Below are positions 19,771 through 34,226 of a stretch of 64,000 nt of DNA, piece after piece. Source of the DNA: Thermotogota bacterium (GTDB lineage Bacteria; Bipolaricaulota; Bipolaricaulia; UBA7950; UBA9294); assembly GCA_039679545.1 (NCBI GenBank), contig JBDKUT010000163.1:1-64000 (forward strand). The letters run 5' to 3'. Made by a program: the position numbers and the translations under genes. A model generated the notes under the pieces. The model was not told the DNA's origin. It did not search any database and worked only from the letters and a program-made list of their open reading frames with translations. The first letter of the stretch is position 1; every line of letters begins with the position of its first letter.

Positions 19771-19972
19771 GCGATCTCCTTTCGCACCGCCTGTGCGACT
19801 CCAATGCCGACATGATCCCTCCTTTTCGTCTCCGTGACGTCTCCGCAACGACGCGGACGACGTGAGCGGAAGCGAGACGGGGTGGGCGCCCAACGCCACG
19901 GGTCTCCCGATCTGCGGCTCGGAATCGCGTACCATGGAGGCAAACGGGAGAACGGGAGAGGAGAGTAGGGCC

Positions 19973-21805
19973 GTGGCGCTTCTGGCTGTGCGGGATCTCG
20001 GGAAGACGTACGCGTCGCACACGCTGTTCGAGCGCCTCTCCCTGACGTTTCACGCCGGCGAGCGCGTCGGTCTCATCGGGCCGAACGGAGCGGGCAAGTC
20101 GACCCTGCTGCGGATCCTCGTCGGCCTCGAGACGCCCGACTTGGGAGTCGTCGAGCGCGCCCGAGACGCGCGCATCGCCTACCTGCCCCAAGTCGACGCC
20201 TTCCCGGCCGGTGTCACCGCCGAGGACGCGCTCTACGCGGCGTCTCGCGAGGTCCCCGCCGAGGAGCACGAGCAGACGGTCCGCGCCAAGAAGATGCTCC
20301 GTCGCGTCGGCTTTGAGCGCGGCGACGTCCGCGCTGACTCCCTGTCTGGCGGATGGCGCAAGCGCCTCGCCATCGGATGCCGCCTCGTTCAAGAGCCGGA
20401 CCTCCTCCTGATGGACGAGCCCACGAACCACCTTGACCTCGCAGGCATCGATTGGCTCGAGCGCTTCCTCGAGCGCGCAAACCTCGCGTACGTCGTCACG
20501 AGCCACGATCGCTACTTCCTCGAACGGGTCACGGACCGCATCGTGGAGATCAACCGCCGCTATCCGGACGGGTTCCTCAGCGTCTCCGGGCACTACAGCG
20601 ACTTCCTCGAGAAGCGAGAGGCGTTCCTGCACATGGAGGACGCCGAGCGCCAGGCGCTCGCCACCGAGGTTCGCCGCGAGATCGACTGGCTTCGCCGCGG
20701 ACCGAGCGCGCGAGAAACGAAGTCCGCGGCTCGGATTGGCTCGGCAAAGGAGAAGATCAGCAAGCTCGCCGAGGTCGGCCGCCGGCAGCGAAGCGACGGG
20801 CGAATCGAGATCGACTTCGCGGCCAGCGGTCGGCGCACGCACGACCTGGTCACGGCCAAGGGGATCTCGAAGGCGCTCGGCGGCCGAGACCTCTTCAGGA
20901 ATCTCGACCTCCACCTCTGCCGCGGAGATCGACTTGGAATCGTAGGGAACAACGCAACCGGGAAGACGACGCTTCTCCGAACGCTCGCTCGTCTCTCGCC
21001 GCCCGACATCGGAACGGTGAGCCACGCGACGGACCTTCGCATCGCGCTCTTCGATCAGCAGCGCGACCAGCTCGACCCGAGCGAGCGCCTCCGCCGGGCT
21101 CTCTCGCCATCGGGCGACACCGTTTCCTACCTCGGCCGGAAGTCGCACATCGTCGCGTGGGCCAAGCGGTTCGGCTTCCGCGCCGATCAGCTCGACACAC
21201 CCGTCGGCGAGCTGTCGGGAGGCGAGCAGGCGCGGGTCCTGATGGCGCTCATGATCCGCGAGCCGGCCGACGTTCTGATGCTCGACGAGCCCACGAACGA
21301 CCTCGACGTCTCGTCGGTCGAGGTCCTCGAGAGCGCGCTCCTCGAGTTTCCGGGCGCCGTCGTCCTGATCACCCACGACCGGTACATGCTCGATCGCGCC
21401 TGCACCGACCTCGTCGGGCTTCACGGAGACGGCCGCTGGGCCAACTACGGAAGCGTCGCTCAGTGGATGGAGCGGGAGACGGAGATCCGCGCCGAGCGGC
21501 AATCTGCAGGCGAAGCCGACGCGCGGAAGTCCGGCGCAAAGGACAGGCGGTCCGCGACGGACGTCGACCCTTCGCCGAGGCCCGGCCTCACCTACCTCGA
21601 GAAGAAGGAGTGGGAGACGATCGAGGAGCGGATCCTCGCCGCCGAGCAGGACGTCGAACGCCTCCGGGCGGATCTCGACGATCCCGCCCTGGCCTCCGAC
21701 CACGAGAAGCTCCACGCGGCCTACGAGGTCCACCAGGCCGCACGTCGCGAGCTCGAGGCTTTGTTCGCACGATGGCAGGAGCTCGAGCGCAAGTTGCTCG
21801 GGTAG
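19973..21805 (+). CDS. uup: ABC-F ATPase, Uup-like
   Basis: Two ABC domains ([25 protein letters not shown] and [25 protein letters not shown]), no TM segments, and a C-terminal [14 protein letters not shown] coiled coil. Confidence 0.8.
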
Positions 21806-29989: not shown

Positions 29990-31454
29990 GAGAGCACGGC
30001 AAAGCGTTCCCGGGCTCGACGCAGGGCGTCCGCATCGACGCGTCCAAGAGGGGTCTCGGTCCGGCAGGTTCGCTCGGAGATCCGCAGCTATGCGGAGGCG
30101 AACCCCTCACGCGGTTTGAACGTCCACGTTCGCCGTAGCGTGTCGGCACCGATCCGATCAAGGTCGGCCGGGGTCACCGCGACCCCGAGGGGGCGAGCGC
30201 TTGCGCAACGGCGTCCGGCGCGTAGAGCCCGCGGGAGAAGAAACCGCCCACGAGGTTCGACAAAGCCTGTCTCCATCGCTCCTCCGCGAGGAGGACGTCA
30301 ACCGTTTCGTCGTCCGTTCGTGGCACCCCGCCCCCTGAAGCCTTCGGGGTGAGGCGGTCGCCAGCGCTATCGAGGTGGCTGTGACGAGAACCGGTGAGGA
30401 ATCCGAGGGGGCAGGCCGGCCCGGTGTGATACCCGGGCAATCTCGTTTCCATTGAGTGCAAGCGCGAACTCTCTCCCGCCGTAGACGGAGGACGCGTGCT
30501 CGACACCCCGAGTGAGCGGTAGAGGTCCGTGGGCCGACGGACGATTCGGCGGACCGCGGAGGCATACGCCTCCGACTCGCCCCACGCCAAGGGGACGCCG
30601 CCGAGATCATCCTTGGTGACGAGCCCCTTCTCGTACACCTCGGTGGACCAGGCGAGAATGCCCCCTCACTCAGCGCGTCGAGTCCCTGGTTTTCAACCTC
30701 GTCGGCAAGGCGCAGGATCCCCTCGGGATCGGCGACGCCGAGCAGACGCCCGAGGGCATAGATCAACTCACAATCGTAGCCTAGCGTGGATGTCTTGTAG
30801 AAAGTACGGCTCTTGGGGATGAGACTCCGGAGCGCGGCGAAGTAGATGCAGGCCACCGGGCAGTTGGCTGCAGGCGAGTCGGCGCCCAAGGAAGCGTCTG
30901 CCATCGCCTCACCGGAGATCGCTTCGGCCCCCTCGAACTGCGCCGCTTTGAGATTCCGCGCGGGAGCGCCCCGGACTCGTTCAAGGGAAAGACGTTCATC
31001 GGGGTCCCGAGGTTGTGGTACTTCTTCATGGCGGGCGACGTCGCCGCGGCGCGGAAGAGGGCGTCGTACTCGCGCCGGCACGCCGCCGGATCGGCTACCG
31101 AGAGCGTCCGATTCCCGGCAATCACGATCCCTTTACGCCGCTTGCTCCCGAAGACGGCGCCGAACGGGCCAGCATCGCGGCAGTTCCCGCATCCGATGCA
31201 CAGTTCGGGGTGAAGCCGAACCCCGCTGCCTTCGCGGGGCGTCAGAGCATCCGTGGGGCAAACCGCGCGCAGGGAGGCTCGGCGCAGGCACGGCAAACCA
31301 CAACGGCGAACCCCTTTCGCGTCCTGCCCGCTGATCGGACACCGATCCGCGACCCGGCCGTCCCTCCAACGCTCGCCCGCCGCGCACAAGCGAACAGGCA
31401 CAACTGGCAACCGACACAGCGGTCGACATCGATAACGTACAAGCGCCTGGCCAT
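29990..31454 (-). pseudogene. Decayed 4Fe-4S ferredoxin plus aldehyde:ferredoxin oxidoreductase (AOR) operon
   Basis: Ferredoxin motifs (RCVGCQLCLFAC, CRAC..PPC, CPTDAL, CIGCGNC) run straight into AOR motifs (GSK..KGIVI, KYHNLGT, CPVAC, ELIYALG, GLDALS, PGYHTGP, RHSHLD). Several frameshifts and stops. The 3' boundary is approximate. Confidence 0.85.
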
Positions 31455-31476
31455 GGCCTCCTTACCTCGAGCCACT

Positions 31477-33018
31477 CTAGAACGGCGGCGTGGAGGAAGC
31501 AACCGACCGCAGCCGAAGCATGTGCTGTGCCAGGCGATAGCTCACGCCCTTCGGGGTGACCGGGGCGATCTCCCACTCGAGCGTGACGAGCGCCTCGAGG
31601 AAGCGCCGGTCGTGGCTCACAAGGAGGAGCGCGCACTCCGTCTCACGCAGCGCCGATTCGAGGCACTCCACCGACGGCAGATCCATGTGATTGGTCGGCT
31701 CGTCCAGGATGATGAGGTGTGGTTCATCAACCATCCGGACAGCGAGCAAGAGCTTCCGCACCTCGCCGGGACTCGGAGCTCGGCTCTCCAGAACCCTCCG
31801 AGGGTCGGATCCGAGGCGGCTCACCCACTGCATCGCGACGCCGAGGTTTTTCCGGGGAAGGCGCCGTACGTCCTCGAGCAGGCCGGACGAGCTCTCAAGA
31901 GGAAGTTCCTGAGGGACGTAGAGCACTCGCTCGGGCGGAAGCGTCAGTCCCACGACAATGTGGCGGACAAGCGTGCTCTTTCCACTCCCGTTGGGTCCCG
32001 TGAGGGCTATCCGATCCCGGGGCTGAATATTGAGGTCGGGAAACTCCAAACGGCGAGGCGACCCCAGTTCGAGGCTTCCCGCGGCGACTCGCACGACCGC
32101 GTTGCGGTCCGATGGACGGCTGCGGAGGCCGATCCCGAGATCGCGCACCGGGGTTGGCGAGAGGGCCAACTCGCGTTCCGCCGTCTGGCGGAGCCGACCC
32201 TTCAGCTGGCGGAAGCCCTGTCCGGAACCGCGGTCGTGATCGCGTGCGGCCCTCGCCTTCTCCCGCGCGTCGTGATCTCGGGGCGCGACGCCACGCAAAG
32301 ACTTCTCCTGCTCCGCCTTCCACGCGCGGGTTCGACGCGCCTTGACTTCGCGTTCGAGCCTCGCGCACTCCTTTCGGAGCTTCCTGCGAGCCTCGCGCGC
32401 TGCGCTCTCTTCGTCCCGGATGGCACGCATCGCCGCGGTGTACCCGCCGGCGCGAAGCTCGACACCTGGAGGAGACACGAAGAGCGAGTGAGCGCAGAGG
32501 CCGTCCAACAGGTCGCGGTCATGGCTGACCAGAAGTCCGATGCCGCGATACGTCCGCAGCGCCTGCAGAACTCTCTCCCGACCGGCCGCGTCAAGGTGGT
32601 TCGTCGGCTCGTCGGCGGCGAGCAAGTCCGGCTTGAGCCACAGGCTCGTCGCGATCTGCATGCGCTTGCGCTCGCCGTCGGAGAGGGTGTCCCAGCGGCG
32701 GAGCCAATCGTCGTCGATCCCGAGAATGCCGCGCAGTCGAAAGGCCTCCGCGTCGTTCGAAGCGAGGAAGCTCGCCGATTCCGGCATGGGCGCGTCGGTT
32801 CGCTGGGGACAGTACACGCGCGCCGCGGGCGCATCGATCCTCCCGCGGCGGGGAACGAGTTCTCCGCACGCAAGCCGCAGCAGGGTCGTCTTGCCGCACC
32901 CGTTCACACCGATGAAACCTGTCCATCCGGAGCCGACCCCGACCTCGATCCCCGAGAAGAGCGCGTCCGGCGAACCAACGTACGCGAAGGAAACGCTGTG
33001 GAAGATGAGCGACGACAC
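31477..33018 (-). CDS. ABC-F ATPase (candidate ribosome-protection/ARE-type)
   Basis: [25 protein letters not shown] and GPNGSGKST/PSPGEVRK/DEPTNHMD, no TM segments. AAGGAGG RBS before GTG 33018. Confidence 0.85.
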   Translation of the reverse strand: MSSLIFHSVSFAYVGSPDALFSGIEVGVGSGWTGFIGVNGCGKTTLLRLACGELVPRRGRIDAPAARVYCPQRTDAPMPESASFLASNDAEAFRLRGILGIDDDWLRRWDTLSDGERKRMQIATSLWLKPDLLAADEPTNHLDAAGRERVLQALRTYRGIGLLVSHDRDLLDGLCAHSLFVSPPGVELRAGGYTAAMRAIRDEESAAREARRKLRKECARLEREVKARRTRAWKAEQEKSLRGVAPRDHDAREKARAARDHDRGSGQGFRQLKGRLRQTAERELALSPTPVRDLGIGLRSRPSDRNAVVRVAAGSLELGSPRRLEFPDLNIQPRDRIALTGPNGSGKSTLVRHIVVGLTLPPERVLYVPQELPLESSSGLLEDVRRLPRKNLGVAMQWVSRLGSDPRRVLESRAPSPGEVRKLLLAVRMVDEPHLIILDEPTNHMDLPSVECLESALRETECALLLVSHDRRFLEALVTLEWEIAPVTPKGVSYRLAQHMLRLRSVASSTPPF

Positions 33019-33222
33019 GTGCCCTCCTTCGTCTCTAGAGAGACGCACGCGGGCACGCCGTCGAACAAGAGGGAAAAGAGAGACAGGAAAGCAGCCCACG
33101 CGCGTCCATTGCGCGGCTGTACGTCAGCCGCGGATGTTCGCCGCGATCGAGCTACTCCGTCATCGGAATGCCTCCCTGAATCACTGCACTCCAGTATAGC
33201 GGCCGCATCGGCCGTCGCTCAA
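33018..33222 (-). promoter_or_regulatory. Promoter and leader attenuator of the ABC-F gene
   Basis: TTGAGC (33217-33222)-18 bp-TATACT (33193-33198), uORF with RBS, overlapping stems, U-rich tract and RBS hairpin (see findings). Confidence 0.7.
33152..33163 (-). CDS. Leader peptide uORF (Met-Thr-Glu-stop)
   Basis: GGGAGG (33171-33176), 7-nt spacer, then ATG ACG GAG TAG. Confidence 0.6.
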   Translation of the reverse strand: MTE

Positions 33223-33242: not shown

Positions 33243-34226
33243 CTACAGCTTCATTCCCATCGACTTGTTCGACGTGCGGGGGACAAAGCCGAGTGTCTCG
33301 GCTTCGCGAGCGACGGATGGCATCCACGCAGGTACGAAGATCTCAACCCGCAGCGTCGGGCTCTTCGCGAGAACCTCGGAGAGCGCCTTGCGCACAAGGT
33401 ACGGAGCGAGGTCCGCGTGCGCTGGGTCGAGACGGGCTCGGATAGAGTTCGTCCCCTTTCCCTTCTTCGACACCGACCACCCGGCGCGAGCGACGATGAC
33501 GTGATCGTGGGTGCGCCGAACGATGACATCGCGATCCCGCGCGGTCTCGAAAAGCGGAGCCACGACGCGAATGGGCCAGGGTGTTCGGTAGCGGCCGGGG
33601 GTGATGGGCTCGAACTCCTGGAGGCCGGCAGGTACGACGCGCTTGTCCATCTCGTAGCGCGTACGCCAGTCGAACTCCGCGAGGGCCTCCTCGACGTAGC
33701 CCGCGGGCAACGGTGGCCGGTCGACGCCTCCGGCCGGCGTGAGCGAGTACCGGGTCGACCCGCCGTACTCGACAAACCCAAGCGAGCGGTAGAGGGACTG
33801 TGCAGGTGTGTTCCCGTCGATCACGCCGAGTCGGACCCGGGAGCCGCCTCTTGCCCGCATCATGTCGAGCGTCGCGACGAGCAGCTGCCGCGCCACGCCG
33901 CGCCCGCGCCACGCCGGGAGGACCCCGACAGTTCCGATGTACCACATGGACGTCGTTCCCTCGCGCTGCGCGATCGTCAGTCCGCAGATCGCTCCGCCGC
34001 CCTCCCACACGAAGCCCCGGATCAGGTCGCGCATCCCGGGAGAGACGAGCGCAAGCGCTCGGACGACCGGCCAGATACGGCGGATCCGCTGTATCCCATC
34101 GACAAGCTGTTCCTGTTCGTCCGACCGGACACCCCATTCCGGGTGCTCCGGGTACTGGAACGTCTTGACAAGCATGTCGGCGGCGGGGATCAAGTCCCGC
34201 GGCAGACGCAACGGACGTACGGTCAT
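33243..34226 (-). CDS. GNAT-family acetyltransferase (tandem GNAT)
   Basis: YIGTVGVLPAWRGRGVARQL and NTPAQSLYRSLGF. AAGGAG RBS. Confidence 0.85.
   Translation of the reverse strand: MTVRPLRLPRDLIPAADMLVKTFQYPEHPEWGVRSDEQEQLVDGIQRIRRIWPVVRALALVSPGMRDLIRGFVWEGGGAICGLTIAQREGTTSMWYIGTVGVLPAWRGRGVARQLLVATLDMMRARGGSRVRLGVIDGNTPAQSLYRSLGFVEYGGSTRYSLTPAGGVDRPPLPAGYVEEALAEFDWRTRYEMDKRVVPAGLQEFEPITPGRYRTPWPIRVVAPLFETARDRDVIVRRTHDHVIVARAGWSVSKKGKGTNSIRARLDPAHADLAPYLVRKALSEVLAKSPTLRVEIFVPAWMPSVAREAETLGFVPRTSNKSMGMKL

Follow-up and report, generated by a model that had tools for sequence, protein, structure and literature searches.

Does the leader in front of an ABC-F ATPase gene of an uncultured Bipolaricaulota bacterium sense stalled ribosomes, and does the protein encoded behind it protect ribosomes from antibiotics or serve in housekeeping? 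The gene lies on the minus strand of the 64,000 nt of contig JBDKUT010000163.1 that we analysed (the window, to which coordinates refer unless another locus is named). Our best explanation, to which we give a probability of about 0.58, is that the leader acts as a translational attenuator sensing ribosome stalling, on behalf of a probable antibiotic-protection factor.

The ABC-F gene (31477–33018, minus strand) encodes 513 aa from a GTG start at 33018. Upstream of it a promoter scan found a sigma-70-type −35 hexamer TTGAGC (33222–33217) and, after an 18-nt spacer, a −10 hexamer TATACT (33198–33193); promoter-like sites of this kind number two in 3.5 kb, where 0.2 are expected. Orthologous leaders also carry TATACT or a near match, and several have, by eye, similarly spaced TTGA-like hexamers upstream. 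Transcription would start near 33187, giving a leader of ∼170 nt. Within the leader lie a Shine–Dalgarno (SD) sequence (33176–33171) and the upstream open reading frame (uORF) it would serve, Met-Thr-Glu-stop (33163–33152), the predicted stall sensor, which was read from the sequence and its conservation. These are followed by the first of four short segments numbered 1 to 4 (segment 1, 33141–33145), an apical hairpin of segments 2 and 3 (2:3; 33113–33131), a switch strand (33086–33107), a pyrimidine tract (33064–33090) and a hairpin (33018–33057) over the ABC-F SD (33029–33023) and its GUG. A sequence-only reading of this DNA had already proposed the promoter, SD, uORF, segments 1–4 and pyrimidine tract, and re-reading of the sequence found all of them in place; it had overlooked the start-site hairpin and a competing 14-bp helix. 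The leader is unusually stable for its composition (−86.5 kcal/mol, z −3.96; none of 200 shuffles equally stable). It belongs to no Rfam family (best E values 3 and 4.5, far under gathering score), and its own genome holds no second copy, the next match having an E value of 2.4. A second uORF, from an ATG near 33109, was considered and rejected: it lacks an SD, and its register with the ABC-F frame varies, by eye, among the four closest leaders.

The protein has the marks of an ABC-F: a single chain with two ABC domains, free of membrane segments, with a DEPTN Walker B motif and intact H-loops. Walker A, Walker B and H-loop are kept at both ATPase sites. The first nucleotide-binding domain (NBD1) is armless, with 99 aa from Walker A1 to Walker B1 (93–106 in Lsa/VmlR-like rows, mostly 140–155 in other ABC-Fs), and the linker is long, with 176 aa from H-loop 1 to Walker A2 (175–176 in Msr, 168–178 in Lsa-like proteins, mostly 142–150 in other ABC-Fs). 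It thus combines the reduced NBD1 arm and extended interdomain linker (ARD) of the ARE1–3 types. A Foldseek search with its AlphaFold model (pLDDT 87.8) returned ARE factors as the six best matches (VmlR2, PoxtA, VgaL, VmlR, LsaA and VgaA-LC), with EttA next. None of the NCBIfam resistance cut-offs is reached: scores against cut-offs are 301 against 380 for NF000355, 178 against 750 for Lsa, 177 against 680 for Msr, 162 against 725 for Vga and 144 against 780 for CplR, and NF000355, which armed ABC-Fs also pass, is a weak marker either way. The signatures LSDGE and PSPGE, which had been taken as atypical, are indeed present but do not point to a special function: PSPGE occurs in 36 of 36 aligned homologues, where the first signature is usually LSHGE, so that they mark the clade, and LSHGE/LSPGE occur in ARE3 proteins too.

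The homologues form one clade, with support of 100 (FastTree, 68 rows) and 99 (IQ-TREE, 43 rows), which adjoins Lsa/ARE3 in three trees (support 97, 82 and 94). The protein shares with Lsa the armless NBD1, the linker length, an LSxGE first signature and the lack of a long C-terminal extension; it differs in its ∼27–30% identity, its separate clade and its PSPGE second signature, and lies outside the Lsa clade. The clade is likely sister to Lsa/ARE3, a placement that long branches and base composition weaken. The AU test does not reject placing it with ARE1/2 (p 0.054) but does reject placing it with L050, an armed 644-aa Bacillus ABC-F that is YdiF-like by reading (p 1e-5). None of the tree references could be assigned with certainty to the VmlR, CplR, Sal, PoxtA or ARE4/5 types.

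In the accessible parts of the 2019 classification by Murina et al. (PMC6723617), ARE function is described as lacking a clear sequence signature and YdiF is called polyphyletic. Its YdiF group lists two 500-aa myxobacterial proteins, Cystobacter fuscus WP_002632592.1 and Myxococcus sp. WP_002640796.1, which have the motifs of our clade, where we place them by eye; both are listed without the arm and C-terminal extension seen in two Bacillota YdiF rows. DAF2 was rejected as a home for the clade, as the DAF2 sequences in the accessible parts of the source are 590–626 aa long, with C-terminal extensions, and are without the clade's motifs.

The closest named homologue comes from Candidatus Bipolaricaulis (85% identity). 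Searches of 184 genomes from the phylum detected the gene in at least 19 (full gene, 8 candidates scored per genome) or at least 20 (N-terminal part, 17 candidates per genome). Presence is patchy even within the genus: one of the five other genomes has the gene, and those without a match are 85–92% complete. Such patchiness within a genus is used as an ARE indicator by Murina et al. (PMC6723617, as far as accessible). Members of the clade are also present in 21 of 201 genomes from the phylum to which Sorangium belongs, 2 of 201 from another phylum and one Verrucomicrobiota genome, and source names add Planctomycetota, Hydrogenedentes, Eisenbacteria and Coprothermobacterota; 2577 of 7997 candidate proteins scored matched at E ≤ 1e-60. 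Among 72,556 plasmids there was no match at E ≤ 1e-50.

Two kinds of gene recur next to the ABC-F. A GNAT acetyltransferase lies just upstream of the promoter in the window (33243–34226, minus strand, start codon inferred from homologues), and 11 of the 24 related loci examined have a homologue (∼330 aa) beside the ABC-F (L002, L004, L005, L007, L009, L011, L012, L016, L018, L101 and L223). In some genomes it precedes the promoter, and in others it directly follows the ABC-F; in L005 and L011 the ends of the two genes overlap, so that an attenuator would control the GNAT as well. A paralogue (54%) is found on contig C125. At three loci a class I SAM methyltransferase gene lies 3′ of the ABC-F (L009:3046–3831, L010:3045–3743 and L101:3054–3863), overlapping its stop codon in two of them. 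These neighbouring methyltransferases and GNATs reach no NCBIfam cut-off. Downstream of the ABC-F in the window (30161–31455, minus strand), ferredoxin and aldehyde:ferredoxin oxidoreductase (AFOR) genes are broken over several frames, through either pseudogene formation or assembly errors; in L002 the AFOR frame is unbroken. The contig has two more ABC-F genes, at 19862–21805 of the window (plus strand) and at G000:C163:75385–76908, with ∼30% identity; the former is Uup-like by eye and is absent from the list of micro-uORFs in its own genome.

We counted as a uORF any ORF of 2–6 codons with an SD of at least 5 nt, 40–300 nt upstream of the gene. The 20 phylum loci, less six that had no callable gene start, gave 14 leaders, and 12 of these have a uORF where shuffles predict 0.9; the expectation that the uORF would be conserved across orthologues is thus borne out. 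Outside the phylum set it is found in 18 of 33 family leaders (1.8 expected), compared with 2 of 7 Lsa-like leaders (0.9 expected) and 5 of 91 other ABC-Fs (7.5 expected), these controls being mostly unrelated ABC-Fs retrieved by generic patterns. A rerun on full-length genes with better starts gave 10 of 12 phylum and 16 of 31 other family leaders; among ABC-Fs with a short linker the count was 5 of 101 (8.5 expected), and among the other long-linker ones it was 3 of 12. In the window's own genome such a uORF precedes 63 of 1390 roughly called genes. Because the leaders share ancestry, all these counts overstate independence. The phylum leaders L013 and L014 have no uORF. With a looser pattern, 18 of 19 selected leaders show a uORF of 3–4 codons (L014, showing none, was left out). 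The encoded peptides are MTE in eight, MRR in three, and MIE, MTS, MKN, MRS, MLR, MTEK and MTDN in one each: length is conserved, sequence only partly. Further afield, three of four related members of the myxobacterial phylum (L185–L188) have no detectable micro-uORF, and L185–L187 share a conserved block immediately 5′ of a perfect SD; this group possibly uses a different regulatory element.

The most serious alternative concerns what is sensed rather than how. The switch might respond to translation stress in general (slowed initiation or early elongation, a shortage of tRNA, or cold), with the ABC-F as a housekeeping rescue factor. The two myxobacterial proteins filed under YdiF in the accessible rows of the 2019 survey, assigned to the clade by eye, are in keeping with such a role, as is the lack of plasmid matches; so too is the uORF peptide, which is kept as Met-Thr-Glu with synonymous changes in 8 of 18 cases. 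The other uORFs, though, vary in sequence (MRR, MKN, MLR, MIE), and other evidence speaks against this reading: the protein has the armless NBD1 and a linker of ARE length, ARE factors are the structures it matches best, the AU test rejects grouping it with the armed L050, and distribution is patchy. On this evidence we regard a general stress sensor as unlikely.

In the free-RNA fold the leader is divided into two parts. In the first, the end and stop codon of the uORF (33151–33158) pair with part of the switch strand (33095–33086) in a helix that we term P1; the stem is extended by pairing of segment 1 with segment 4 (1:4), rather than with segment 2, and of the uORF SD with the beginning of the pyrimidine tract. 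In the second, the separate start-site hairpin hides the ABC-F SD and GUG. Across nine leaders 90.9% of 77 P1 cells are paired, with three pairs changed on both sides; none of 500 shuffles scores as high, and slid controls reach 19–49%. For the whole OFF structure the figure is 96.7% in the four closest leaders, reached by 4 of 500 shuffles. As the leaders are related and the helices were read from the same sequences, these shuffle figures are not probabilities. The 2:3 hairpin is paired in 28 of 28 cells in the four close leaders.

A competing ON helix can form between 33107–33094 of the switch strand and an arm at 33054–33041 that overlaps the anti-SD strand of the start-site hairpin. It has 14 bp and −31.7 kcal/mol (z −4.4), a strength that none of 300 shuffles reaches. 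All nine leaders have an equivalent duplex (−19.7 to −31.7 kcal/mol), which at most 19 of 300 shuffles match in seven of them; in L003 and L223 it is no better than shuffles. In the four close leaders 41 of 44 cells of this helix are paired, with one-sided changes only and no two-sided ones.

We estimated how far a ribosome on the uORF would alter the accessibility of the ABC-F start. With the uORF start covered, opening the start site in the window's leader is modelled to cost 7.8 rather than 18.0 kcal/mol. Among 120 control genes the median cost is 8.9 kcal/mol; one reaches 18 and none drops as far. The cost is lower with the ribosome in 18 of 18 leaders, by 0.8–10.0 kcal/mol (the start of L222 being mis-set), and in 10 of them the drop is larger than in any of 25 shuffles of the middle part. 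It is small (0.8–2.0 kcal/mol) in 7 of 18, and for L002, L018, L019 and L012 it falls within the shuffles. In a short leader variant built on the same uORF principle (L005, L011 and L012), with 77–86 nt from uORF to start, it is 1.6–4.4 kcal/mol. Together with the uORF enrichment, P1 and the protein architecture, this drop upholds the core of the sequence-only reading, a conserved uORF-driven attenuator before an ARE-like ABC-F.

The proposed switch would work as follows. In the OFF state the uORF end would be paired with the switch strand (33107–33086) and the hairpin at 33057–33018 would hide the ABC-F SD and GUG. A ribosome held at the start codon of the uORF, presumably translated from its own SD, would cover the uORF strand; the freed switch strand would then capture the anti-SD arm (33054–33041) over 14 bp. 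Since this arm is made before the SD, the start site would open on capture. The 2:3 hairpin would be present in OFF and ON alike. Energies from the fold model qualify this scheme: ON lies 10.4 kcal/mol above OFF in free RNA, is level with it once codon 1 is covered, and dominates before the SD is made, yet the modelled flip is incomplete. With codon 1 covered, ON is populated in only 0.07–0.30 of full-length molecules, and with codon 3 covered in at most 0.03, so that the model favours start-codon arrest; in the fold model, moreover, the SD can still pair with the first codons. The switch would therefore need co-transcriptional or 30S-assisted capture.

Given a uORF that is very short and conserved in length rather than in sequence, the most likely inducers would be drugs that arrest initiation (lincosamides, pleuromutilins and streptogramin A). 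At short uORFs of Streptomyces ARE5 genes these three classes, and not erythromycin, halt ribosomes on the start codon, according to the accessible part of PMC12421871. The induced ABC-F would clear the stalled ribosome and thereby shut off its own expression.

A different division of labour, in which translational repression is secondary, would have the C/U tract load Rho in the OFF state and be caged in the loop of the ON helix, the leader terminating unless a ribosome stalls. As the genome encodes Rho (623 bits, above cut-off), termination by Rho may contribute. In the free fold most of the tract is unpaired, in the ON fold it lies inside the helix loop, a pyrimidine-rich stretch stands at the same place in nine aligned leaders, and in L009 and L008 the start-site change is only ∼1 kcal/mol; the tract is thus a possible Rho loading site. 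It is, however, only ∼27 nt long, which is short for a rut site. Its complementarity to the SD explains it more simply, and the window has a strong start-site hairpin as well as a strong ON helix. Rho as the main agent is accordingly quite improbable beside the translational attenuator.

The wiring put forward by the sequence-only reading, in which an intrinsic terminator of segments 3 and 4 plus the tract forms together with 1:2 and a stalled ribosome favours a 2:3 antiterminator, is the least probable of the alternatives, and we reject it as the main switch on fold probabilities, terminator scan and shuffle test. The 1:2 and 3:4 pairings do exist, with local energies of −8.1 and −12.4 kcal/mol, against −15.2 for 2:3. 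In snapshots of the growing transcript, with the RNA free or a ribosome over codon 1, 2 or 3, the probability of 3:4 was nevertheless at most 0.01, and that of 2:3 was 0.99–1.00 throughout. Forcing 1:2 plus 3:4 carries a penalty of 9.6 kcal/mol when the RNA is free and of ∼6 when a ribosome is bound. The 3:4 stem, which has a 3-nt bulge, was not called by the terminator scan, and the tract is no U run: the 8 nt from one base past the stem do include five U, of which only three are consecutive. In the four closest leaders 3:4 is paired in 32 of 36 cells, but shuffles do as well (119 of 500), and in the five remaining aligned leaders the same columns fold weakly, at −3.9 to −10.6 kcal/mol. Segment 1 is also too far from the AUG (18–22 nt past it) to be covered by a ribosome positioned on the start codon.

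Terminators do belong to the wider picture: characterised ARE leaders use them, as far as the accessible literature describes, and so do some members of this family. A permissive scan fires in 22 of 50 family leaders, a count that is usable for individual examples only, the scan having had no shuffle control. L102 and L203, both outside the close group, have hairpin-plus-U-run terminators, that of L102 being directly against the ABC-F SD. The family thus appears to use transcriptional as well as translational wiring.

Translational attenuation of the kind we favour has characterised relatives. As described in the accessible parts of PMC9226507, the vmlR leader of Bacillus subtilis (ARE2; uORF MIN) has its three-codon uORF in a 5′ stem, SL-1, as in P1 here; an invariant hairpin, SL-2, of which 2:3 is the analogue; and a hairpin, SL-4, that sequesters the main-gene SD and is opened by a competing helix, the same layout as here. 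It differs in its proven intrinsic terminator (SL-3) and NusG pause signals, whereas no terminator is predicted to form here. VmlR shares 20–30% identity with this ABC-F and belongs to another clade. The cplR leader of Clostridioides difficile (ARE1; uORF MRI), in the accessible parts of PMC10201436, likewise has its micro-uORF in a 5′ hairpin and its main-gene SD in a 3′ hairpin. There the SD-hiding hairpin doubles as a poly-U-tailed terminator, unlike the hairpin here, which has no U tail; with a mutated U tract, cplR stays off by translational attenuation alone. The same source gives the lsaA uORF as MAGN. The present leader therefore has the conserved 3–4-codon uORF with its own SD of the vmlR/cplR type and, from predicted folds and conservation, the uORF in a 5′ stem competing with an activating helix; the intrinsic terminator of that type is absent here and present in some family members (L102, L203). 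The layout is the vmlR/cplR design on an unnamed ABC-F branch: the design is known, while the clade and the terminator-free wiring are new. A literature search covering mainly journals outside subscription found no paper on this clade or leader.

A broader proposal, which we offer tentatively and rate at somewhat below even odds, makes the clade an ARE subfamily that has yet to be named. It would be the sister group of Lsa, have members in various environmental and candidate phyla (Bipolaricaulota, Myxococcota, Verrucomicrobiota and others) and be concealed within 'YdiF' in the classification of 2019. Its members would provide drug-inducible ribosome protection, in Bipolaricaulota through a terminator-free, solely translational micro-uORF switch, and some genomes would co-induce a GNAT or a SAM methyltransferase.

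As the regulatory design is already familiar, the finding should be useful to specialists rather than surprising. Protective and housekeeping ABC-Fs are not separable by sequence alone, and the characterised inducible ARE ABC-Fs in the cited papers, in their accessible parts, come from Bacillota and Actinomycetota. A conserved stall-sensing leader would be independent evidence for a large clade as a candidate resistance family, one that current NCBIfam cut-offs miss.
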